This document shows positions 17,481 through 34,900 of a stretch of DNA of 64,000 nt, piece after piece (the first letter of the stretch is position 1; every line of letters starts with the position of its first letter). Origin of the DNA: Escherichia coli (GTDB taxonomy: Bacteria; Pseudomonadota; Gammaproteobacteria; Enterobacterales; Enterobacteriaceae). A model generated the notes under the pieces. The model did no database searches and was not told the origin of the DNA. It saw nothing but the letters and a program-made list of their open reading frames with translations. The translations under genes and the position numbers were made by a program. The stretch is from NCBI RefSeq assembly GCF_050920415.1, contig NZ_CP169309.1. One strand, given 5' to 3'.

Positions 17481-18098
17481 TCACACCTCCTTCGGGTTTG
17501 CCAGATAGCCAGTGGTATCCCCGGTCGGGCGGCTGTTGGCATTGGGTTTGATCACAATATTCGGTTTGGTAAAGTGAGCTCGCGGCAACGGCGCAACAGC
17601 CGCCAAATCGCCATGTTTTTTACGCAGCTCGTCGATAGGGCCGAAATCCAGCGCCCGCAGCGGGCAGGATTCTACGCAGATCGGTTTTTTCCCCTCCGCA
17701 ACACGGTCATAACAACCATCGCATTTGGTCATATGGCCTTTCGTTTCGTTATATTGCGGTGCGCCGTACGGGCAAGCCATATGGCAGTAACGGCAGCCAA
17801 TGCATACATCTTCATCGACCACAACAAAACCATCTTCACGTTTATGCATCGCACCGCTCGGGCAGACTTTAGTACAAGCCGGATCTTCGCAGTGGTTACA
17901 TGAAATCGACAGATAGTAGGCAAACACGTTCTGATGCCAGACACCGTTATCTTCCTGCCAGTCACCGCCAGCATATTCATAAATGCGGCGGAAGCTGACT
18001 TCCGGCGTCAGATCTTTATAGTCTTTACAGGCCAGCTCGCAGGTTTTGCAACCGGTGCAACGGCTGGAATCAATAAAAAATCCATACTGGGTTGTCAT
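17481..18098 (-). CDS. dmsB: DMSO reductase iron-sulfur subunit (4x[4Fe-4S])
   Basis: 205-aa ORF with repeated ferredoxin-type Cys clusters (CTGCKTCELACK, CIGCRYCHMACP). Confidence 0.95.
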   Translation of the reverse strand: MTTQYGFFIDSSRCTGCKTCELACKDYKDLTPEVSFRRIYEYAGGDWQEDNGVWHQNVFAYYLSISCNHCEDPACTKVCPSGAMHKREDGFVVVDEDVCIGCRYCHMACPYGAPQYNETKGHMTKCDGCYDRVAEGKKPICVESCPLRALDFGPIDELRKKHGDLAAVAPLPRAHFTKPNIVIKPNANSRPTGDTTGYLANPKEV

Positions 18099-18108
18099 CG
18101 GTTACTCC

Positions 18109-20553
18109 TTACACCTTTTCAACCTGAACCAGGTTTGTATGTGACGGATTCCCCTTAGCGAGAGGAGACGGACGTTGAGTGGTCAGTACGTTAATACAAC
18201 CGCCCTTATCGACACGTTTTGCATCCGGGTCATACCAGGCACCTTCACCCAGTGCGACCACACCCGGCATCATTCGTGGCGTCACTTTTGCCTCAATGTG
18301 AACCTCACCACGGTCGTTAAAGATCCTGACCTTATCGCCGTTGTTGATACCGCGTTTTTGTGCATCAAGCGGGTTGATCCACATTTCCTGACGGCAAGCT
18401 GCTTTCAGCACATCAACGTTGCCGTAAGTTGAGTGAACGCGAGATTTGTAGTGGAAGCCAGTAAGCTGCAGCGGATATTGTTTGTTCAGCGGATCCTGAT
18501 AACTTTCAAAGCCCGGCGTGTAGATCGGCAGTGGATCGATCACGTCGCCTTCTGGCAATTCCCAGGTCGCGGCAATGTCAGCAAGCGCCTGCGAATAAAT
18601 CTCAATTTTACCCGATGGCGTGGTCAGTGGATTTGCCTGCGGATCTTCACGGAAGGCTTTATAAGCAACGTGATGCCCTTGTGGGTCGCGCTTTTTAAAG
18701 ATCCCCTGCTTGCGGAACTCTTCAAACGTTGGCAGTTCAGGAATCGCTTCCCGCGACTGGGCATACAGATGCCGCATCCACTCTTCCTGGGTACGGCCTT
18801 CGGTGAACTGCTGCTCGACGCCAAGACGTTTTGCCAGTTCACTGGTCATCTCATAGATGGTCTTACATTCAAAGCGCGGTTTAATCACCTGGTCGTTGAA
18901 AATCACATAAGACATATTCCCGCAGGATGCATCCAGCGCAAAGTCCATCTGTTCGGAAGCAGTGCAGTCAGGCAGCAGGATGTCAGCATATTTCGCCGAT
19001 GAGGTCATGTGGCAGTCGATAACCACAATCAGCTCGCACTTCTTATCATCCTGGAGGATTTCATGAGTACGGTTGATTTCAGAATGCTGGTTAATCAGGC
19101 AGTTACCGGCATAGTTCCAGATCATTTTGATCGGCACATCAAGCTTATCTTTCCCGCGCACCCCATCACGCAGCGCTGTCATTTCCGGGCCACGTTCAAT
19201 GGCATCGGTCCACATAAACATCGAAATGCTGGTCTGGATCGGGTTTTCGAGGGTCGGCATACGGACAAAAGGTAAGCTGTATGAACCTTCACGCGCGCCG
19301 CTGTTGCCCCCGTTAATACCAACGTTACCGGTCAGAATCGCCAGCATTGAGATAGCACGGGTTGCGATTTCACCGTTAGCGTGACGCTGCGGCCCCCATC
19401 CCTGACTGATAAACGCGGGTTTAGTACTGCCGATCTCACGTGCCAGTTTGACGATTTTGTCTGCCGGAACACCGGTAATTTGCGAGGCCCATTCCGGTGT
19501 TTTGGCCACGCCATCTGGCCCTTCCCCCAGAATATAAGCTTTATAGTGACCATTTTTCGGTGCACTGGCTGGCAGGGTTTTCTCGTCGTAGCCAACGCAA
19601 TATTTATCGAGGAATTCCTGATCAACCAGATTTTCGCTGATCATGACGTACGCCAGACCATTAACCAGTGCGGCATCTGTTCCCGGACGAATGGGGATCC
19701 ACTCATCTTCACGCCCTGCACCGGTGTCGGTATAGCGCGGATCGATAATGATCATACGAGCGTTGGATTTCTGACGAGCCTGCTCAAGGTAATAAGTCAC
19801 CCCACCACCGCTCATTCGCGTTTCGCCAGGGTTATTACCAAACAGTACCACCAGCTTACTGTTTTCAATATCTGACGGGCTATTACCATCCGCCCAGCCG
19901 CCGTAGGTATAGTTCAAACCTTCCGCAATTTGCGCGGAAGAGTAGTCACCGTAATGGTTCAGATAACCGCCGCAGCAGTTCATCAGGCGAGCGACCAGGG
20001 TATTTCCCGGCGGCCAGGAGCGGGTCATGGTGCCGCCCAGCGTACCGGTACCATAGTTCAGATAGATAGACTCGTTGCCGTACTCTTTGATCAGACGCTG
20101 CATGTTCGTGGCGATAATGTCGTAGGCTTCTTCCCAGCTAATGCGCTCGAATTTGCCTTCGCCGCGCGCCCCAACTCGTTTCATCGGATATTTCAGGCGG
20201 TCAGGGTTATAAACGCGGCGACGCATGGAACGCCCACGCAGGCAGGCGCGTACCTGGTGCAGCCCGTCGTAATTATCATCGCCGGTATTGTCTGTTTCGA
20301 CATATTTGATTTCACCGTCCACTACGTGCATACGTAGCGGGCAGCGGCTACCACAGTTAACTGTACAGGCGCTCCAGATAACCTTTTCGTCTGACTTTGC
20401 CGGAAGGGCACTATCAACAGCGTGCGCAATCCGACTAAAAGGTAAGGTTAATGCGCTGCTGGCCATTGCCAGGCCGCCGATCGCTGTCGTTTTTACCAAA
20501 CCACGGCGACTCACCTCAGCAGCCAATACCGCATCAGGGATTTTCGTTTTCAT
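18109..20553 (-). CDS. dmsA: DMSO reductase molybdopterin catalytic subunit, Tat-exported
   Basis: 814-aa ORF; twin-arginine signal (SRRGLVKTTAIGGLAMA). Confidence 0.95.
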   Translation of the reverse strand: MKTKIPDAVLAAEVSRRGLVKTTAIGGLAMASSALTLPFSRIAHAVDSALPAKSDEKVIWSACTVNCGSRCPLRMHVVDGEIKYVETDNTGDDNYDGLHQVRACLRGRSMRRRVYNPDRLKYPMKRVGARGEGKFERISWEEAYDIIATNMQRLIKEYGNESIYLNYGTGTLGGTMTRSWPPGNTLVARLMNCCGGYLNHYGDYSSAQIAEGLNYTYGGWADGNSPSDIENSKLVVLFGNNPGETRMSGGGVTYYLEQARQKSNARMIIIDPRYTDTGAGREDEWIPIRPGTDAALVNGLAYVMISENLVDQEFLDKYCVGYDEKTLPASAPKNGHYKAYILGEGPDGVAKTPEWASQITGVPADKIVKLAREIGSTKPAFISQGWGPQRHANGEIATRAISMLAILTGNVGINGGNSGAREGSYSLPFVRMPTLENPIQTSISMFMWTDAIERGPEMTALRDGVRGKDKLDVPIKMIWNYAGNCLINQHSEINRTHEILQDDKKCELIVVIDCHMTSSAKYADILLPDCTASEQMDFALDASCGNMSYVIFNDQVIKPRFECKTIYEMTSELAKRLGVEQQFTEGRTQEEWMRHLYAQSREAIPELPTFEEFRKQGIFKKRDPQGHHVAYKAFREDPQANPLTTPSGKIEIYSQALADIAATWELPEGDVIDPLPIYTPGFESYQDPLNKQYPLQLTGFHYKSRVHSTYGNVDVLKAACRQEMWINPLDAQKRGINNGDKVRIFNDRGEVHIEAKVTPRMMPGVVALGEGAWYDPDAKRVDKGGCINVLTTQRPSPLAKGNPSHTNLVQVEKV

Positions 20554-20723
20554 AATGGCTCACTCAAGCTTGCTCACGATTGATTCCAGTAACAAACCGT
20601 ATTGTGTAATTATTTCTATAGCAGGTCGCTATATAGGTTTGTATACATCGAATGATTTGAAAATCAAAGAGATAGGCAGATTTTCACTCGAAAGTAGTAT
20701 TACGTGTAAGTGAGGAGTAATTA

Positions 20724-20737
20724 TTGTTCGGTATCAA
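20724..20737 (-). promoter_or_regulatory. FNR box of the dmsA promoter (TTGATaccgAACAA, minus-strand reading)
   Basis: Reverse complement of 20724-20737 is ttgataccgaacaa; dmsABC is a known FNR-activated operon. Confidence 0.6.
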
Positions 20738-20747
20738 AGGGAGACAA

Positions 20748-20773
20748 AAAAAGCGCCCGAAGGCGCTTTTTAG
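20748..20773 (-). terminator. rho-independent terminator downstream of serS (bidirectional hairpin)
   Basis: aaagcgcc-cgaa-ggcgcttt hairpin flanked by A-run and T-run. Confidence 0.7.
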
Positions 20774-20791
20774 ATTCAGAAAAATTGGGTA

Positions 20792-22105
<1,314 letters not shown>

Positions 22106-22174: not shown

Positions 22175-23518
22175 TTAACGGTAGCGTTTTATGGGGCTAT
22201 TTTGATCCTGTTCAGCCAGCCAGGCGAGCTTTTCGCCAATCTTGCCTTCAAGGCCCCTGTTTGTCGGGAAATAATAGCGTGTTTGTGCTATTTCCGGCGG
22301 GAAGTAAACCTCACCGGCAGCATAAGCGTTTGCTTCATCATGAGCATAACGATATTCCTGACTGTAGCCCATTTCCTTCATTAATTTTGTCGGCGCATTA
22401 CGCAAATGAACCGGCACGTCATAATCCGGACGTTCGCGAGCATCGGCCAGCGCGGCTTTAAATGCGGTATAGACAGCGTTACTTTTTGGCGCGCAGGCCA
22501 GGTAAACAATCGCCTGAGCAATGGCACGTTCACCTTCAGCCGGACCAACTCGAGTAAAGCAATCCCAGGCCGCAATAGCCACCTGCATCGCCCGTGGGTC
22601 AGCATTACCCACATCTTCAGACGCAATCGCCAGGCAGCGACGCGCGACATATAACGGATCTCCACCGGCGGTAATAATTCGCGCATACCAGTACAGCGCC
22701 GCATCGGGTGCGCTCCCACGCACCGATTTATGCAGTGCAGAGATCAGATCGTAAAAGCGATCGCCTTTGTTATCAAAGCGGGCGCTACGCTCACCGGCGA
22801 TTTCGGTCAGTAATTCAGGCTTCAGGACCCGCTTACCGCTATCATCGACTTCGGCCATATCCGCCATCATTTCCAGCGTATTTAACGCCCGGCGCGCGTC
22901 GCCATTCACCAGTTCAGCAATGGCGCGTCGTGTTTCATCTGGCAGAACAATATCCTGACCACCATAGCCACGGGTTTTGTCTTCCATCGCCTGAGTCAGT
23001 ACTTGCTCAATATCCTCTGTACTGAGGGATTTCAGCAGATAGACACGGGCACGGGAAAGCAGCGCCGAATTAAGCTCAAACGACGGGTTTTCAGTCGTCG
23101 CACCAATAAAAGTGATGGTGCCGTCTTCAATATGTGGCAGAAATGCATCCTGCTGGCTTTTGTTGAAACGGTGAACTTCGTCAACAAAAAGAATAGTGCG
23201 GCGACCAGCATTGCGGTTTTGCCGAGCGCGCTCGATCGCCTCGCGAATCTCTTTCACGCCAGAGGTGACGGCAGAAATACGTTCCACATCAGCGTTCGCA
23301 TAACGGGCTATAACTTCAGCGAGGGTTGTTTTGCCGGTACCCGGTGGCCCCCAGAGGATCATAGAATGCAAATGCCCAGCTTCGATAGCGCGCGGCAATG
23401 GCTTCCCGGCAGCCAGCAAATGTTGCTGGCCGATATACTGTGCTAAATTTTCTGGCCGCATACGCGCGGCCAGAGGTTGAAAAGTATTATCCGAAAAATC
23501 GAGCGACAGATTGCTCAC
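22175..23518 (-). CDS. rarA: recombination-associated AAA+ ATPase RarA (MgsA)
   Basis: 447-aa ORF; Walker [12 protein letters not shown]. Confidence 0.95.
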
Positions 23519-23528
23519 TCAGGTGCCT

Positions 23529-24140
23529 CTACTTACGTTGATCATCTACCGTGACGCCTTGCGGCGGGGTGAAGGTAAATTTCGCTGCATCCACAGCCCC
23601 ATTTTGCTGGGATTTCAGCTGATAACTGCTGCGCTGATCGTCCTGCTCCACCGCGCTAAACTGATGGATTGTGCCATCACGCCCTACGTTAATGGTGAAC
23701 TGCTTCAAATTGCCATTGCTGGCTTTCGGCGTCAGGACAAAGTCATCGCCATTCTGTTTGATATTGTACTGCTGCCAGTCGCTGGACTGGTTGCGGGCAA
23801 TCAGCATAAACGGCGTATTACCGGTGGCATCTTTCAGCCAGGTTGCCGTAGCTTGCTCAACGAACGGGTTATAGAACCACAGTGTTTTACCGTCAGAAAC
23901 CAGAATGCTTTCATCAGGTTGAGTCATATGCCAGTTGAATAAGTTTGGACGTTTCACCCACAGATCGCCCTGACCTTCCTGCACCGCAGCGCCGCTACCG
24001 TCAGTCACTTTTTGTGTGAAGCTGGCGTGGAAGCTGCTGACTTTATCCAGACGGCTTTTCAGATCGCTTGCGGCATCAGCCCAAACACTGGACGCCACTA
24101 AACTTGAGAGTAATGCACAGGTGATGGCAATTTTTTTCAT
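23529..24140 (-). CDS. lolA: outer-membrane lipoprotein carrier protein LolA
   Basis: [21 protein letters not shown] signal peptide; 203 aa. Confidence 0.95.
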
Positions 24141-24252
24141 CATTGTTCCTCAAATTACGTCACTCCCGATCGGGAGTTCCCTCTACTCTCTATTCCAGGC
24201 TAATAATCAGCTTGAGGAAAGAAGAAAATACTGAATTTTCAGTTGATAGAGT

Positions 24253-24288
24253 GCCGGATGCAACGCTACCTCGCCTTATCCGGCCTAC
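24253..24288. repeat. REP (palindromic unit) element between ftsK and lolA
   Basis: gccggatgcaacgctacctcgccttatccggcctac resembles the E. coli REP consensus. Confidence 0.7.
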
Positions 24289-24298
24289 GATGCATTAA

Positions 24299-27200
24299 TT
24301 AGTCAAACGGCGGTGGGGCCAGCACTTCACGATTACCGTTGTGCCCCTGTTCGCTGACAATCCCTTGCGCTTCCATCTGTTCGATAATACGCGCTGCACG
24401 GTTATAACCAATGCGGAACTGACGCTGTACGCCTGAAATTGACGCTTTGCGTTTTTCAGTGACAAACTGCACTGCCTGATCGAACAACGGATCCAATTCT
24501 TCAGCGCCATCGAAACCACCCGCACCACCTTCGCTTTCGCTGTCGGAGGTGATGCCGTCAACATACTGTGGGCGACCACGCGCTTTCCAGTCCTGCACCA
24601 CGGCATGAACTTCCTGATCGCGAACAAAAGCACCGTGGACACGTACTGGCAGCGTGGAGTTCGGCCCAGAGTAGAGCATATCCCCCATACCCAGCAGGGA
24701 TTCCGCGCCAGCCTGATCAAGAATGGTACGTGAGTCAATCTTACTGGATACGGTAAAGGCGATACGGGTCGGAATATTCGCTTTAATCAGACCAGTAATA
24801 ACATCAACCGATGGACGCTGAGTTGCCAGTACGAGGTGGATACCTGCAGCACGGGCTTTTTGCGCCAGACGTGCTATCAGCTCTTCCACTTTTTTACCTA
24901 CCGTCATCATCAGGTCGGCAAATTCGTCCACCAACACCACAATGTACGGTTCTTTTTTCAGCACCGGATGCTGGGCATCCATACTGTCACCCGGCTTCCA
25001 GTACGGGTCTGGAATCGGACGCATCATGCGATCGGCTTCAGCAATTTTTTCGTTATAACCCGCCAGATTACGCACACCCAGCGCAGACATCAGTTTGTAA
25101 CGACGCTCCATCTCGTTAACACACCAGCGCAGCGCGTTGGCGGCATCTTTCATATCGGTAACAACTTCCGTTAACAGGTGCGGAATGCCTTCATAAACCG
25201 AAAGCTCCAGCATTTTCGGGTCGATCATGATGAAACGCACATCTTCTGGCTGTGCTTTATAAAGCATGCTCAGGATCATCGCGTTCACACCGACAGATTT
25301 ACCGGAACCGGTAGTCCCCGCAACCAACAAGTGCGGCATCTTCGCCAGATCGGCAACCACCGGCTCACCGGCGATATCTTTACCCAGCACCACAGTTAAT
25401 GGTGACGGATTATCGCGGAACTTCGCATTATCAAGCACTTCGCGCAGATAAACGGTTTGTCGTTTTTTATTCGGTAACTCCAGACCTACATAAGGTTTGC
25501 CAGGAATAACTTCAACGACACGCACCGCCACCGTCGAAAGTGAACGGGCAAGGTCACGAGACAAGTTAGAAATGCGCGCCGCTTTTACGCCCGGTGCCAG
25601 ATTCAATTCAAAGCGAGTGATAACCGGTCCCGGAGAGTAATTGACGACATCGGCTTTAATACGGAAATCAGCCAGACGCGCTTCCACCAGGCGCGCCATT
25701 TGTTCAAGCGCAAAGGTATCTACCGGTTCCACTTCGCTCGGTGGCGGTGTCAGCAAATCCAGAGAAGGCAGCGGCGTCGTCGGTTTATGCAACGGACGGC
25801 TGTCGCCATTGCGCATCAACAGTGGATGAAGCAGGGTATCCTGCGGCTGCGGCGCAACCGGTTGTTGTGGCTGCTGATACTGCGGCTGCGGCGCAACTGG
25901 CTGTTGCGGCTGCTGATATTGCTGCTGTGGTGCAACCGGCTGTTGTGGCTGCTGATACTGCGGCTGTGGTGCAACCGGCTGTTGCGGCTGCTGATATTGC
26001 GGCTGCTGTGCAACCGGTTGTTGCGGCTGCTGGTATTGCTGCTGCGGCGCTATCGGTTGTTGCGGCTGCTGATACTGCGGCTGCGGCACTACCGGTTGTT
26101 GCGGCTGCTGTACAGGTTCAACAATTGGCGTAAACAGCGGTTCGTGTGGCCCATCATCCAGCAAAGCTTTCATTGGCGAAAATTCGAAATCATCCAGCGA
26201 GAACGGATTCGCCCCAGCTGGTTGTTCGCCCGAATAACGTTGCTGTTGAGTTTGAGCAAACTGACGAGCCAGTTCTGCCTCTGCTACAGCATCTGTATCT
26301 TCTGCGTTGACTGGCACATCATGTTGATACTGTTCGCCATAGCGTTGCTGCTGCGTCTGGGCGAACTGACGCGCCAGTTCATCCTGCTGCATCGCATCGA
26401 TTTCATCATCGTTATACTGATCGCCGGAATCGTACTGATTGCGCTGGGCTTCACGGGCTTTTTCTTCTGCTGCACGCTGTGAGGGCAGCTTAATGCCATA
26501 TGACGCCAGTTCACGACGAGTTGGCACGCGGATACGTTTCGGTCGTGGCAACTGCGGGCCAATCCCCTCTTTAACCTGCGGACGCGGTCCACCGCTATTT
26601 GCCAGACTGAAGACTGGTGCGGCAACGGTTGCGGCAGCCCCCGTCGCCAATGTCGCTTTTTTCACGCCAGATGCCAGAGGGGAAACAGCGGCAGCGGCTT
26701 CCACTGGAGGTACTGCTGCAACAGAAGGTGCTTTCAGCGAAGATTTGATCGGTTCTGGTTCTTTAACCGGTTCAGGAATCGGTTGATACCAGGCCGCAAG
26801 TTGTTCACGTTCACGGGCACGCTTCTCTTCCACTTCTTCAAAATAGTAAAGCGGCGGACGCGCGGGTTTTGTCTCTTCTACAATGGGTTCAGGCTCCACA
26901 ACAGGCTGCTGTTCAACGGGTTGCGGCTGTTGGTACAACGGCTCCTGAGCGGCTGGCTGCTGATAAGTTTGCTCAGTCTGGTATGTAGACTGTGGAGCAA
27001 AAGTGGATTGCTGCTCTTCGGCTTGCCAGGCGTTACCTGCCATCGATTGTTCTGGCGCAGGGGCGTAATACGGCTGTTGCGCAGACTGTTCCGCCGCAGT
27101 TGTGTAATACGGCTGCTGAACAGGTTGTTCCGGCGCAGGAGCGTAGTAAGGTTGTTGCACAGGCTGTTCAGCTGCAGGCGCATAATACGGCTGCTGTGGC

Positions 27201-28405
27201 TGTACAGGTTGTTGCAGCGGCTCATTATATTGCTCTGCAGGCTGCGCATATTGTGACTGCTGTGGGTAACCTTCCGGTGCAGGTGCAATAACCGGTTCTC
27301 CCGTTTGCGGCCCCGGTACAGGCTGCCAGGCTACTGTAGGTTGCGTAGGTGGAACATCAACAGAGGCAACTGGCGGCGTCTGAGTCACAGGTTCAACCGG
27401 TGCAGCCCAGCTTTGTGTCGCCGTGGTAGCAGCAGCTGCTACAGCAACAGGTTCGGTAATTGGCGCACCGTTTAATAATGGATCGTATTCGTCATATTCT
27501 GGCTGCGTTGCACGATTGCCCGAAAAGAGGACGTCGTCAGGGTCGGCAGCCACACCGCGTGCAGTGTAGGTAATCTCTTCTTCATCATCCATCCGCTTAC
27601 CGGAGAACAACGCAGCATCTGTTTGCCGCCCCATCGGATTAATAAATTTTTCCGCCAACCGTTTACGACGCGCTAACGCGCCGCGAAGAATACGGGCACG
27701 GCGCGATTCATGCTGTTTGCCGTGATTTTCATCTTCATATTCTTCGTCGTCTTCATACTCATCTTCATCGACCCAGGTATCATCGCGACGGGTACGATTA
27801 CTGGCGAAGGTGAGAATGTTTAAAATCCAGCCGCCAAGTTTTTCAGCAATGGTCACCCATGACCAACCGGTAAACAGTGTCAGGCCCGCCGCCCAAACGC
27901 AGAGCAGCGCAATAGTTCCCCCGCTACTGTGTAGCAGTGGTTGTAGCGTAGTGCTTAGTAAGCTGCCGATGACGCCACCGGAGGCAAAATACCAGATATC
28001 GTCAGCGTTGATTGCCGCCAGACCACAAGAGGTAAGGATGAGCGCCAAAACGCCAATGATGCGTAGCGAAACGGCAAAATAATCAATGTATTCGTCACTG
28101 GACTGATGACGCCAGGCAAACCAACAGCCGCCGACGATAATGACGGGAATGGTGTAAGCCATCACGCCAAAAATAAAGAACAGCGTATCTGCCAGCCACG
28201 CACCGGGCATCCCACCTAAATTATGGATAGGTTCATGCCAGGCCGTTTGCGACCAGCTGGGGTCCGAAGGGTTAAAGCTTAGTAAGGCAGCCATCAACCA
28301 GACGGCAAACAGGACAATAAGGATCAGCAACGCCTCCAGAAGGCGGCGGCCGCTACTTAACTTTGTCAATGTGACTTCTTTGTCTTCAGTGTATTCCTGG
28401 CTCAA
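24299..28405 (-). CDS. ftsK: DNA translocase FtsK
   Basis: 1368-aa ORF; N-terminal membrane domain, long Pro/Gln-rich linker, C-terminal motor with Walker A GTTGSGKS. Confidence 0.95.
25845..26115. repeat. tandem 39-bp repeats (about 6-7 copies) in the ftsK linker, encoding [13 protein letters not shown]-type units
   Basis: Repeated ggctgctgatactgcggctgcggcgcaac(c/t)gg(c/t)tgttgc units read directly in the DNA. Confidence 0.85.
27040..27200. repeat. second tandem repeat block in the ftsK linker (about 4 copies, encoding [13 protein letters not shown]-type units)
   Basis: Repeated ggcgcagg.gcgtaatacggctg.tg.acaggttgttc units. Confidence 0.8.
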
Positions 28406-28539
28406 GAAAGGCTCTCCAGGTTACAGGCTTTTCCTGCCCGATGCTAAAACGGACAACAGTACCAGGTTACCCCAGTACTGTTGCTGTATGGATTAACAGG
28501 AGTGTAATCAAAATACGCCGATTTTGCACCTGTTCCGTG

Positions 28540-29034
28540 TTAGCGCGTCTTAATAACCAGACGATTACTCTGCTTGACTTCTTCCATAACAACGTATGTC
28601 CGCGTGTCATTGACGCCAGGCAGACGCAGCAGGGTTTCCCCCAGCAACTTACGGTAAGCTGACATATCCGGCACGCGTGTTTTCAACAGGTAGTCGAAAT
28701 CGCCGGATACTAAATGACACTCCTGAATTTCTTCAAGTTTTTGTACAGCAGTATTGAATTGTTCAAACACATCCGGTGCGCCACGATTCAGAGTAATCTC
28801 AACGAATACCAGAAGTGATGCATCCAGATAATGGGGGTTCAGCAGCGCTGTATAGCCCTGAATAAACCCTTGTCTTTCCAGCCGACGCACACGCTCAAGG
28901 CACGGCGTTGGGGAAAGTCCCACACGTTTAGAAAGCTCGACGTTAGAAATACGCCCATCCTTTTGCAACTCATTAAGAATGTTACGATCGATACGGTCGA
29001 GATCTTTGCCAGGGCGCTTCTTGCTATCTACCAT
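28540..29034 (-). CDS. lrp: leucine-responsive regulatory protein
   Basis: Internal start gives MVDSKKRPGKDLDRIDRNILNELQKDGRISNVELSKRVGLSPTPCLERV; 164 aa. Confidence 0.95.
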   Translation of the reverse strand: MVDSKKRPGKDLDRIDRNILNELQKDGRISNVELSKRVGLSPTPCLERVRRLERQGFIQGYTALLNPHYLDASLLVFVEITLNRGAPDVFEQFNTAVQKLEEIQECHLVSGDFDYLLKTRVPDMSAYRKLLGETLLRLPGVNDTRTYVVMEEVKQSNRLVIKTR

Positions 29035-29460
29035 TATTATTGTCTCTCTGTATTCCTTCCCTACTCCTGTCTGACCCTGAAACATCACTGTTCAGAGTCG
29101 CTACCCGTCACGATAGACCGAAATCATTAAGATTCACGGCGCGCAATGCCTGGTCTACGGTGAGAAGACCGTTGCCTGGTGGCAGCTATCGACATCACGA
29201 ATGGCGTCTGTCCACGCCATACGTAGATTTCACTAGCACGGTAAACATGGTATTTACATGCATGGTTATGCGCATATAAGAATACTGTTTTTTTTCTTCC
29301 TCGAATGTTTTCGCAAAACACCAGGGGATTGTCAAAGCAAAACATCGATTTTTAGTACAACATGCCAGATATTCATTAACAGGGGCGTTTATTCATCATT
29401 TAATCGGCTTATAAAGCGGGAAATTTAAGTAGCAGAGGTGATAATGACTGGAGAATTTGA

Positions 29461-30543
<1,083 letters not shown>

Positions 30544-30665
30544 TTTTACAAATCAGTAACAAAAGTAAAGAAGGCGACACCATGCGACTATGGGTCGCCT
30601 TTATTTTTTCCCCGTTGTAACATTGCTCTGCAAATAATTCTGATAACTCACCTGCTAAGCGTGCA

Positions 30666-32432
30666 ATGAATAAATCCCGTCAAAAAGAGTTAACCCGCTG
30701 GTTAAAACAGCAAAGCGTCATCTCCCAACGTTGGCTGAATATTTCTCGTCTACTGGGCTTTGTGAGCGGCATATTGATCATTGCCCAGGCCTGGTTCATG
30801 GCGCGTATTCTGCAACATATGATTATGGAGAGTATTCCCCGTGAAGCCCTGCTGCTTCCCTTTACGTTACTGGTTCTGACCTTTGTACTGCGCGCATGGG
30901 TGGTCTGGTTACGCGAACGAGTGGGTTATCACGCCGGGCAGCATATCCGCTTTGCCATCCGCCGTCAGGTTCTCGACCGTCTGCAACAAGCAGGGCCAGC
31001 GTGGATTCAGGGTAAACCGGCGGGGAGCTGGGCGACGCTGGTACTCGAGCAAATTGACGATATGCATGATTACTATGCACGCTACCTGCCGCAAATGGCG
31101 CTGGCAGTGTCGGTGCCGTTGCTGATTGTGGTGGCTATCTTCCCCTCTAACTGGGCTGCGGCGCTCATTCTGCTGGGCACTGCTCCGTTAATTCCGTTAT
31201 TTATGGCGCTGGTTGGAATGGGGGCTGCCGATGCTAACCGACGCAACTTTCTCGCTCTTGCTCGCTTAAGTGGGCATTTTCTCGATCGCCTGCGCGGCAT
31301 GGAAACATTGCGTATTTTTGGTCGTGGTGAAGCTGAAATTGAAAGTATTCGTTCTGCTTCGGAAGATTTCCGCCAACGGACAATGGAAGTGCTACGGCTG
31401 GCGTTTTTATCCTCCGGCATTCTCGAATTTTTTACCTCGCTGTCAATTGCTCTGGTCGCGGTCTACTTTGGTTTTTCCTATCTCGGTGAGCTGGATTTTG
31501 GGCACTACGATACTGGCGTGACGCTGGCTGCGGGGTTTCTGGCCCTGATCCTTGCGCCGGAGTTTTTCCAGCCATTGCGCGATCTGGGTACGTTTTATCA
31601 TGCTAAAGCCCAGGCTGTTGGCGCGGCAGACAGTCTGAAAACGTTTATGGAAACCCCGCTCGCCCATCCGCAGCGCGGTGAGGCTGAATTAACGTCGGCC
31701 GATCCGGTGACCATTGAGGCCGAGGATCTGTTTATCACGTCGCCGGAAGGTAAAACGCTGGCCGGACCGTTGAACTTTACTTTGCCAGCAGGCCAACGAG
31801 CGGTGTTGGTTGGTCGTAGCGGTTCAGGTAAAAGCTCACTACTGAATGCGCTTTCCGGTTTTCTTTCATATCAGGGATCGCTACGAATCAACGGAATAGA
31901 ATTACGTGATTTATCACCGGAATCATGGCGTAAGCATCTCTCCTGGGTTGGTCAAAATCCACAATTACCAGCAGCAACACTACGAGATAACGTACTGCTG
32001 GCACGACCTGATGCCAGCGAACAAGAGTTACAAACAGCACTGGATAACGCGTGGGTCAGTGAGTTTCTACCGCTCCTGCCACAAGGCGTTGATACGCCTG
32101 TTGGCGACCAGGCTGCCCGCCTTTCCGTAGGCCAGGCACAACGTGTGGCGGTGGCGCGTGCATTACTGAATCCCTGTTCGCTATTACTGTTGGATGAACC
32201 CGCAGCAAGCCTTGATGCTCACAGTGAACAGCGCGTAATGGAGGCGCTGAATGCCGCCTCTCTGCGCCAGACAACGTTAATGGTCACCCACCAGTTAGAA
32301 GATCTTGCTGACTGGGATGTCATTTGGGTAATGCAGGATGGTCAGATTATCGAGCAAGGACGTTACGCGGAATTAAGCGTGGCTGGTGGTCCTTTCGCCA
32401 CATTGCTGGCCCATCGTCAGGAGGAGATTTAA
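30666..32432 (+). CDS. cydD: glutathione/cysteine ABC exporter subunit CydD
   Basis: 588-aa ORF; transmembrane domain plus ABC ATPase (GRSGSGKSS). Confidence 0.95.
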   Translation: MNKSRQKELTRWLKQQSVISQRWLNISRLLGFVSGILIIAQAWFMARILQHMIMESIPREALLLPFTLLVLTFVLRAWVVWLRERVGYHAGQHIRFAIRRQVLDRLQQAGPAWIQGKPAGSWATLVLEQIDDMHDYYARYLPQMALAVSVPLLIVVAIFPSNWAAALILLGTAPLIPLFMALVGMGAADANRRNFLALARLSGHFLDRLRGMETLRIFGRGEAEIESIRSASEDFRQRTMEVLRLAFLSSGILEFFTSLSIALVAVYFGFSYLGELDFGHYDTGVTLAAGFLALILAPEFFQPLRDLGTFYHAKAQAVGAADSLKTFMETPLAHPQRGEAELTSADPVTIEAEDLFITSPEGKTLAGPLNFTLPAGQRAVLVGRSGSGKSSLLNALSGFLSYQGSLRINGIELRDLSPESWRKHLSWVGQNPQLPAATLRDNVLLARPDASEQELQTALDNAWVSEFLPLLPQGVDTPVGDQAARLSVGQAQRVAVARALLNPCSLLLLDEPAASLDAHSEQRVMEALNAASLRQTTLMVTHQLEDLADWDVIWVMQDGQIIEQGRYAELSVAGGPFATLLAHRQEEI

Positions 32433-34154
32433 ATGCGCGCTTTGCTACCCTATCTGGCACTGTATAAACGTCATAAATGGATGTTAAGTCTTGGTATTGT
32501 GCTGGCAATTGTCACGCTGCTCGCCAGTATCGGTCTGTTGACACTTTCCGGCTGGTTCCTCTCGGCCTCAGCGGTAGCGGGGGTTGCCGGACTGTACAGC
32601 TTCAACTATATGCTACCCGCTGCGGGCGTGCGTGGTGCAGCAATCACCCGTACTGCCGGGCGCTATTTTGAACGTCTGGTAAGTCACGACGCGACTTTCC
32701 GCGTGTTGCAGCATCTGCGCATTTACACCTTCAGCAAATTGCTACCCCTCTCCCCTGCCGGACTGGCGCGCTATCGTCAGGGCGAATTGCTCAACCGCGT
32801 CGTGGCGGATGTTGATACGCTCGATCATCTTTACCTGCGCGTTATCTCGCCGCTGGTAGGCGCTTTTGTAGTGATTATGGTGGTGACTATCGGGTTAAGT
32901 TTTCTTGATTTCACCCTCGCCTTTACGCTGGGTGGCATTATGTTACTGACGCTTTTCCTGATGCCACCGCTGTTTTATCGTGCGGGAAAAAGCACCGGGC
33001 AAAATCTGACTCATCTTCGCGGGCAGTATCGCCAACAACTGACAGCCTGGCTGCAAGGGCAAGCTGAGCTGACCATTTTTGGTGCCAGCGATCGTTATCG
33101 CACGCAATTAGAGAATACTGAAATTCAGTGGCTGGAAGCGCAACGCCGTCAATCTGAACTGACAGCTTTGTCGCAAGCAATAATGCTGTTAATTGGCGCG
33201 TTAGCGGTGATCCTGATGCTGTGGATGGCGTCTGGCGGCGTTGGTGGCAATACTCAACCAGGCGCGTTAATTGCCCTGTTTGTCTTCTGTGCGTTAGCCG
33301 CGTTTGAAGCACTGGCACCAGTAACGGGTGCATTTCAGCATCTGGGGCAAGTCATTGCCTCTGCCGTACGGATCACCGATTTAACGGATCAAAAACCTGA
33401 AGTCACCTTCCCTGATACCCAAACCCGTGTTGCCGATTGCGTTTCGCTGACGTTACGGGATGTTCAGTTCACTTATCCGGAGCAGTCCCAACAGGCACTT
33501 AAAGGGATTTCTCTTCAGGTAAACGCCGGAGAACATATGGCGATTCTCGGGCGAACCGGATGCGGTAAATCAACATTGTTACAACTGCTGACCCGCGCAT
33601 GGGACCCGCAACAGGGCGAGATTTTAATTAACGATAGCCCCATAGCCAGCCTGAACGAAGCAACTCTACGACAGACCATCAGCGTTGTGCCACAGCGAGT
33701 GCATCTGTTTAGCGCCACACTGCGTGATAATCTGTTACTCGCCTCGCCTGGCAGTAGTGATGAAGTTTTGGCGGAGATCTTGCGTCGAGTTGGTCTGGAG
33801 AAGCTGCTCGAGGATGCAGGTCTCAACAGTTGGTTAGGTGAAGGCGGACGCCAGCTCTCCGGTGGTGAACTGCGCCGTCTGGCTATCGCCCGTGCGCTGT
33901 TACATGATGCGCCACTGGTATTGCTGGATGAACCTACCGAAGGCTTAGATGCCACAACTGAAAGTCAGATCCTTGAATTACTTGCAGAAATGATGCGTGA
34001 GAAAACGGTGTTAATGGTCACCCATCGACTTCGCGGGCTCTCTCGTTTCCAGCAAATAATAGTGATGGACAACGGGCAAATTATTGAGCAAGGTACTCAC
34101 GCAGAACTGCTTGCCCGACAGGGGCGTTATTACCAGTTTAAGCAGGGTTTGTAA
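32433..34154 (+). CDS. cydC: glutathione/cysteine ABC exporter subunit CydC
   Basis: 573-aa ORF; ABC ATPase (GRTGCGKST); contiguous with cydD. Confidence 0.95.
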   Translation: MRALLPYLALYKRHKWMLSLGIVLAIVTLLASIGLLTLSGWFLSASAVAGVAGLYSFNYMLPAAGVRGAAITRTAGRYFERLVSHDATFRVLQHLRIYTFSKLLPLSPAGLARYRQGELLNRVVADVDTLDHLYLRVISPLVGAFVVIMVVTIGLSFLDFTLAFTLGGIMLLTLFLMPPLFYRAGKSTGQNLTHLRGQYRQQLTAWLQGQAELTIFGASDRYRTQLENTEIQWLEAQRRQSELTALSQAIMLLIGALAVILMLWMASGGVGGNTQPGALIALFVFCALAAFEALAPVTGAFQHLGQVIASAVRITDLTDQKPEVTFPDTQTRVADCVSLTLRDVQFTYPEQSQQALKGISLQVNAGEHMAILGRTGCGKSTLLQLLTRAWDPQQGEILINDSPIASLNEATLRQTISVVPQRVHLFSATLRDNLLLASPGSSDEVLAEILRRVGLEKLLEDAGLNSWLGEGGRQLSGGELRRLAIARALLHDAPLVLLDEPTEGLDATTESQILELLAEMMREKTVLMVTHRLRGLSRFQQIIVMDNGQIIEQGTHAELLARQGRYYQFKQGL

Positions 34155-34195
34155 GCTATTATTGAACGATCCGACTTGCGTGGAGTTTTGCGGTC

Positions 34196-34900
34196 ATGCG
34201 CCTGGTTCAGCTTTCTCGCCATTCAATAGCCTTCCCTTCCCCGGAAGGCGCATTACGTGAGCCTAACGGCCTGCTGGCACTGGGGGGCGATCTTAGCCCT
34301 GCGCGCCTGTTAATGGCTTATCAGCGTGGTATTTTTCCGTGGTTTTCTCCAGGCGACCCCATCCTCTGGTGGTCGCCCGATCCTCGCGCGGTACTATGGC
34401 CTGAATCATTGCATATCAGCCGTAGTATGAAACGATTTCATAAACACTCGCCCTATCGTGTCACGATGAATTACGCCTTTGGTCAGGTCATTGAAGGCTG
34501 TGCCAGCGATCGCGAAGAAGGAACCTGGATCACGCGTGGCGTGGTCGAAGCCTACCATCGCCTTCACGAACTCGGTCATGCCCACTCCATCGAAGTCTGG
34601 TGTGAAGATGAGCTTGTTGGCGGTATGTACGGCGTGGCCCAGGGAACGCTATTTTGTGGCGAGTCCATGTTCAGCCGGATGGAAAACGCGTCCAAAACGG
34701 CGCTACTGGTCTTCTGTGAGGAATTTATCCGTCACGGTGGCAAACTTATCGACTGCCAGGTCCTTAACGATCACACAGCTTCGCTTGGTGCCTGCGAAAT
34801 TCCCCGCCGGGATTATCTAAATTATCTCAATCAAATGCGCCTCGGACGATTGCCGAATAATTTCTGGGTACCACGGTGCTTGTTTTCACCACAAGAATGA
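34196..34900 (+). CDS. aat: leucyl/phenylalanyl-tRNA--protein transferase
   Basis: 234-aa ORF in the conserved position between cydC and infA. Confidence 0.9.

Follow-up and report, generated by a model that had tools for sequence, protein, structure and literature searches.

The window analysed here, a 64-kb stretch of Escherichia coli DNA, carries ftsK, the gene for the DNA translocase FtsK, in the usual E. coli order trxB / lrp-ftsK-lolA-rarA-serS. PGAP annotates an identical 4107-nt ftsK in NZ_CP169399.1 (E. coli MFDS1022581), a record that is 100% identical over the whole stretch, and the lrp-ftsK-lolA-rarA-serS context is annotated there and in 22 other genomes. Four Pfam domains, all scoring far above their curated cut-offs, define the architecture of the protein. 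These are the N-terminal 4-TM membrane domain FtsK_4TM (PF13491, aa 20-191, E = 5.4e-42), FtsK_alpha (PF17854, aa 879-979, E = 1.1e-29), the P-loop ATPase motor FtsK_SpoIIIE (PF01580, aa 987-1200, E = 8.9e-88) and FtsK_gamma, the winged helix that interacts with KOPS and XerD (PF09397, aa 1303-1363, E = 2.6e-28). A linker of ~690 residues is devoid of any Pfam domain. Reviews portray the FtsK linker as unstructured, Pro/Gln-rich and variable in length between species; it is required for normal activity, and parts of it contact other divisome proteins (PMC5357621; PMC3870252). Two arrays of 39-bp tandem repeats, named A and B in the order in which they occur in the protein, are embedded in this linker (Table 1).

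Table 1. Coordinates in the window of ftsK, its repeat arrays and associated features
Feature	Position	Strand	Description
ftsK CDS (DNA translocase FtsK)	24299..28405	minus	TTG start, 4107 nt, 1368 aa; from the ORF list
Array A	27041..27196	minus	4 in-frame 39-bp units, aa 404-455, QQPYYAPA(A/P)EQ(P/S)x
Array B	25838..26110	minus	7 in-frame 39-bp units, aa 766-856, QQPQQP(V/I)(A/V)(P/Q)Q(P/Q)Q(Y/D)
Degenerate relic unit	27231..27265	minus	N-terminal of array A in the protein; from the repeat search; weak
Run of TTCATC	27728-27769		6-bp tandem run x 7, 69% matches
Imperfect duplication	~26230-26390	minus	FtsK aa 674-725, two copies ~37 residues apart
Overlapping ORF, Leu/Arg-rich	25700-26482	plus	260 aa
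Overlapping ORF, Leu/Arg-rich	26783-27256	plus	157 aa
ms06 primers	26928-26947 and 27287-27306		379 bp in the window, 301 bp in K-12
ms07 primers	25745-25764 and 26351-26370		626 bp in the window, 587 bp in K-12
CVN001 primers	25749-25770 and 26205-26225		around array B

The arrays had been placed at 25845-26115 and 27040-27200, with about 6-7 and about 4 copies, in a preliminary description made from the sequence, and this outline holds. Tandem Repeats Finder (TRF) locates array B at 25841-26110 (period 39, 6.9 copies, 88% matches, score 386) and array A at 27048-27193 (period 39, 3.7 copies, 73% matches), with borders within ~7 bp of those proposed, and counting in the reading frame gives 7 and 4 units. 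For array A, an alternative call has a period of 78 (1.9 copies, 81% matches), and the scores of this array range from 159 to 209. The spacing of 39 found in the repeat search is that of head-to-tail tandem copies of a fixed 39-bp unit. A fifth copy near array A, with 71% identity and lying 66 bp out of the 39-bp register, is weak and looks like a relic. In the rest of the 64-kb window no other tandem repeat scores 100 or more.

The linker is extreme in CAG, CAA and CCG codons, and a periodicity arising from Pro/Gln codon composition in place of true repetition deserves consideration. Matches at a lag of 39 reach 0.88 in array B and 0.72 in array A. When the codons are shuffled 5000 times, the best in-frame lag averages 0.565 and 0.450, respectively, and not one shuffle attains the observed value in either array. 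With the TRF scores of both arrays and the exact 39-bp steps that separate strains (see below), this rules out compositional pseudo-periodicity, which has next to no probability left. Codon usage probably accounts for another feature of the region. Two plus-strand ORFs extend over the arrays and were considered as possible antisense genes. Stop codons are absent from the reverse complement of Gln/Pro codons; these ORFs are therefore most likely by-products and were set aside.

The units are less alike than the preliminary description held when it called them near-perfect. Any two units of array B agree at only 31-36 of 39 nt (79-92%) and any two of array A at 27-31 (69-79%); no exact direct repeat in this ftsK exceeds 26 bp. 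Divergence between units is mainly synonymous, with pS = 0.46 and pN = 0.05 in array B, pS = 0.75 and pN = 0.11 in array A, and pN/pS ratios of 0.11-0.15. Low pN against high pS indicates that the arrays are old duplications that preserved their peptide pattern as the DNA drifted. In array A the match at lag 78 (0.78) exceeds that at lag 39 (0.72), which fits an origin of the four-unit allele by doubling of a two-unit block.

Comparison with K-12 locates the additional length of the protein. As stated in the preliminary description, K-12 FtsK has 1329 aa (MG1655 b0890, 3990 nt) as against 1368 aa here; the K-12 gene likewise begins with TTG. Both proteins share the same architecture and Pfam domains, with an N-terminal 4TM domain, a Pro/Gln-rich linker (~650 aa in K-12) and an alpha-beta-gamma motor, and no amino acid differs between them in the motor and gamma domains. 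A global alignment of the two proteins contains 11 substitutions and 39 gap columns. All 39 gap columns fall inside the two arrays, so that the extra length does lie in the linker repeats, as had been proposed. The gap in array A comprises 26 aa, or two units (~aa 430-455; 4 units here, 2 in K-12), and that in array B 13 aa, or one unit (~aa 773-785; 7 units here, 6 in K-12). TRF applied to K-12 ftsK returns 1.9 copies for array A and 5.7 for array B. Relative to K-12, this ftsK has two more units in A and one more in B, on DNA that is ~3.4% diverged, almost entirely at synonymous positions.

The ftsK of the window differs by ~3.3-3.9% in DNA from the genes of K-12, BL21, O157:H7, Nissle and ATCC 11775, and nearly all of these differences are synonymous. 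The motor and gamma domains show 0-1 amino-acid changes with respect to strains of very different backgrounds. Array B DNA aligned between strains is 10-13% different even at equal unit count. Right after the membrane domain, an acidic stretch is encoded by the run of TTCATC, which has the same length in the window and in K-12.

The FtsK linker alignment across E. coli strains, suggested as a check in the preliminary description, reveals that both arrays differ by whole in-frame 39-bp units; identical counts across strains are clearly not what is found. Each array with its flanks was searched in 5,426 complete E. coli genomes, and match spans were taken from 60 evenly spaced hits, a sample in which clinical and laboratory strains are over-represented. 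Array A occurs in this sample in roughly equal thirds of 2, 3 and 4 units: spans of 473 bp (2 units) were found in 21 of the 60 records, of 512 bp (3 units) in 19 and of 551 bp (4 units) in another 19. The last record has a span of 455 bp, produced by an 18-bp deletion beside a 2-unit array and comparable with the allele of strain H22 described below. Array B is dominated by spans of 651 bp (7 units, 26/60) and 612 bp (6 units, 23/60), with one record of 573 bp (5 units), three of a form shortened by 24 bp (627 bp) and seven in which the span is not decisive for the unit count.

The range of alleles is wider than these spans convey. The ftsK genes of 22 further genomes were translated; they had been picked for diversity and so show range, not frequencies. 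Over the resulting 23 complete genomes FtsK comes in 13 lengths between 1277 and 1381 aa; array A contains 2-4 units and array B 1-8, and all alleles are in frame. The shortest protein, that of STEC1585 (1277 aa), has a single array B unit, and the longest, that of 19KM1831 (1381 aa), has eight. Partial changes of 5, 6 and 8 aa also occur in the 23 genomes, always in frame. Several strains, including the Nissle-derived SYNB1934 and the type strain ATCC 11775, have an additional 5-residue piece QQPQY; in ETEC1738 one unit is short by 8 residues; and H22 lacks QQPVQP immediately before array A. Such partial-unit changes are the expected outcome of misalignment between short internal repeats. The count of the window, 4 + 7 units, recurs in M24, CRE51 and N96, and K-12 derivatives and O157:H7 each have one allele per group in the samples. 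The allele of this strain (4 + 7 units, 1368 aa) is long but not unusual, and that of K-12 (2 + 6, 1329 aa) is short.

Tandem repeats are a classic source of mis-assembly from short reads, and the preliminary description warned that copies might have been miscounted. This concern is weak here. The arrays measure only 273 bp (B) and 156 bp (A) and are spanned or anchored by ordinary reads and k-mers; the longest exact repeat is the 26-bp one mentioned above; and the coding sequence is in frame. In addition, the independent complete assemblies of N96, M24 and CRE51 arrive at the same unit counts and at 1368 aa, and the amplicons predicted for the two arrays, 379 and 626 bp, coincide with published alleles sized on gels. 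Collapse or expansion of units during assembly is thus very unlikely to have produced the counts in this stretch, and an artefact is rejected on the grounds of repeat structure and independent assemblies. Alleles with more uniform units run a somewhat higher risk of miscounting, as in 19KM1831, where an exact repeat of 65 bp exists.

Both arrays are established loci of multilocus variable-number typing (MLVA): array A is ms06 and array B is ms07, also called CVN001. The assignment is based on mapping the primer sequences as later papers give them. All six published primers match with 0-1 mismatch in the window and in K-12 and flank the two arrays; in this strain the ms07 and CVN001 pairs each include one primer with a single mismatch. 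In the E. coli/Shigella scheme ms07 is equated with CVN001, and ms06 and ms07 are both listed with 39-bp units (PMC4553163). CVN001 primers carry the label ftsK (PMC11773471), whereas PMC8215070 and PMC4553163 leave the gene of ms06 unnamed, so that its placement in ftsK comes from the present mapping. Later papers attribute ms07/CVN001 to Lindstedt 2007 and Gorge 2008 (as cited in PMC4553163, PMC5217547 and PMC11773471) and ms06 to Gorge 2008 (as cited in PMC8215070 and PMC4553163).

The correspondence extends to allele sizes. Published ms06 amplicons of 301-379 bp define alleles 2, 3 and 4, and ms07 amplicons of 392-821 bp define seven alleles between 1 and 12 (PMC8215070). On this scale the present strain is ms06-4 / ms07-7: its ms06 is the largest common allele (4 units), and its ms07 is allele 7 on the Gorge amplicon scale, as against allele 6 in K-12. 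The one-unit array B of STEC1585 is the 392-bp ms07 allele. CVN001 alleles of 4-8 repeats are reported in Swedish ESBL E. coli (PMC5217547). Neither locus differs in kind from its array, as unit length, location and, for ms07, whole-unit alleles agree. Thus, the variation was already known, and the view of the preliminary description, a strain-variable in-frame repeat locus, is supported as correct but is not new.

Close to array B, a further imperfect duplication is discernible at the protein level (aa 674-725), of constant length across the 23 genomes; the ms07 forward primer matches only its first copy within 3 mismatches. A counterpart of the arrays has been described in Salmonella. The ftsK VNTR known as STTR7/SENTR2, an MLVA marker, has a 39-bp unit and 9.3 copies in S. 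Enteritidis NCTC 13349 (PMC2430564), and S. Enteritidis strains that differ by an in-frame indel of 84 bp in the linker repeats have been described (PMC6137255). STTR7/SENTR2 resembles the E. coli arrays in its 39-bp unit and its position in the ftsK linker; it differs in belonging to another genus and in its higher copy number.

Taken together, these data very probably describe old in-frame minisatellites of the linker, in which units are occasionally gained or lost, are tolerated, remain stable within clones and are spread by homologous recombination. The Pro/Gln-rich unstructured linker lies between the N-terminal membrane domain, anchored at the septum, and the hexameric motor at the C-terminus, and each 39-bp unit contributes 13 residues of low-complexity spacer to this tether. 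Length alleles would be tolerated because such a segment acts as a flexible tether and not as a folded domain. In-frame gain and loss is likely to proceed by slippage during replication or by unequal recombination of adjacent units, and exchange between shorter internal repeats could yield the occasional changes of 15, 18 or 24 bp. Slippage or unequal exchange is a plausible and natural source of the alleles. As the units are diverged, with exact repeats no longer than 26 bp, slippage should be inefficient, plausible but slow. The low rate of change expected from unit divergence agrees with the constant alleles in K-12 derivatives, O157:H7 and ST131. Once formed, alleles would stay stable within clones and pass between lineages by homologous recombination.

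The contribution of recombination can be appreciated by comparison with N96. N96 matches the window perfectly (100%) at 23138-23637, at 27388-30137 and also at 30600-34600, and diverges from it by 1-4% over ~23640-27390, a tract of ~3.7 kb with both arrays inside. Within ftsK, the first quarter of the gene shows no difference from N96, and thereafter the identity in blocks of 250 bp is 96-99.6%. Array B of N96 has the same count but another order and sequence of unit variants. Judged from this pattern, the difference in array B is part of a 3.7-kb recombination tract and not a clean unit change. The divergent tract comprises the 3' end of lolA, the intergenic region and the 3' three quarters of ftsK.

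It may be asked whether strains differ mainly by import of whole ftsK alleles, unit change in situ being rare. The N96 tract, with identical flanks on both sides and with arrays of equal count but different unit order and sequence, speaks for such import, as does the constancy of alleles inside clonal groups, both in the present samples and in ST131, where only CVN014 and CVN004 varied and CVN001 was monomorphic (PMC5217547). However, recombination merely moves alleles, and some process must create them. Moreover, ES9, J31 and BL21 each differ from K-12 by exactly one or two units on otherwise near-identical array sequence, which points to unit changes in situ. A predominance of import is therefore a serious possibility that falls somewhat short of an even chance. 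The two processes are complementary, not exclusive, and occasional gain and loss of units together with spread by recombination remains the preferred reading.

Does the number of units matter to the cell? A tuned number, with selection on linker length or on the dose of PQ repeats and an effect on division or chromosome dimer resolution, would be in line with the conservation of the unit peptide pattern against heavy synonymous divergence (pN/pS 0.11-0.15) and with the presence of the array in Salmonella as well. On the other hand, natural array B alleles of 1 to 8 units occur in the genomes studied here and of up to 12 in published work, with no sign of an optimum, and swapping the 84-bp linker indel between two S. 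Enteritidis strains left the phenotype unchanged in the assay used (PMC6137255). The low pN/pS may also reflect nothing more than a need for disorder and the absence of stop codons. Functional tuning thus appears improbable. From the tolerance of 1-12 units and the one negative allele swap in Salmonella, we infer that unit number is close to neutral.

Conservation of the peptide at near-saturated synonymous divergence (pN/pS ~0.1) nevertheless leaves room for a non-neutral role of unit number. It is tempting to speculate that the count determines how far the FtsK motor can reach from the septum, or how large a dose of a conserved 13-residue PQ motif is available to bind divisome partners, with lengths tuned by lineage; this version is slightly more doubtful still. 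If it were true, lineages would carry lengths fitted to cell geometry or growth habit. A phase-variable contingency locus was also considered. The unit is of 39 bp, a multiple of 3, and not of 1-8 bp, and the alleles of all 23 genomes are in frame. This reading is rejected, since the units keep the frame and have diverged (69-92% identical, with the longest exact repeat at 26 bp).

In practice, the array alleles explain why FtsK has unequal lengths (1277-1381 aa) among E. coli genome records: the differences reflect true alleles, not faulty annotation. Likewise, ms06 and ms07/CVN001 alleles can be read directly from a genome sequence. Beyond such bookkeeping the significance is slight, and no unanswered question about FtsK is opened.

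The lineage of the strain was compared at 18000-22000, 30600-34600 and 50000-54000. Of 5,425 complete E. coli genomes, 5,407 reach only 90-95% identity to the poxB-hcr segment, and 17 reach 95-99%. Relatives that recur are N96 (from a Tibetan pig), 2017-02-2CC, 2013C-4282, WL297, RMDEC465, EC42405, R32_14_1F and 2020CK-00188. These identities place the strain in a rare and deep lineage of E. coli, and a cryptic-clade-like lineage would fit.
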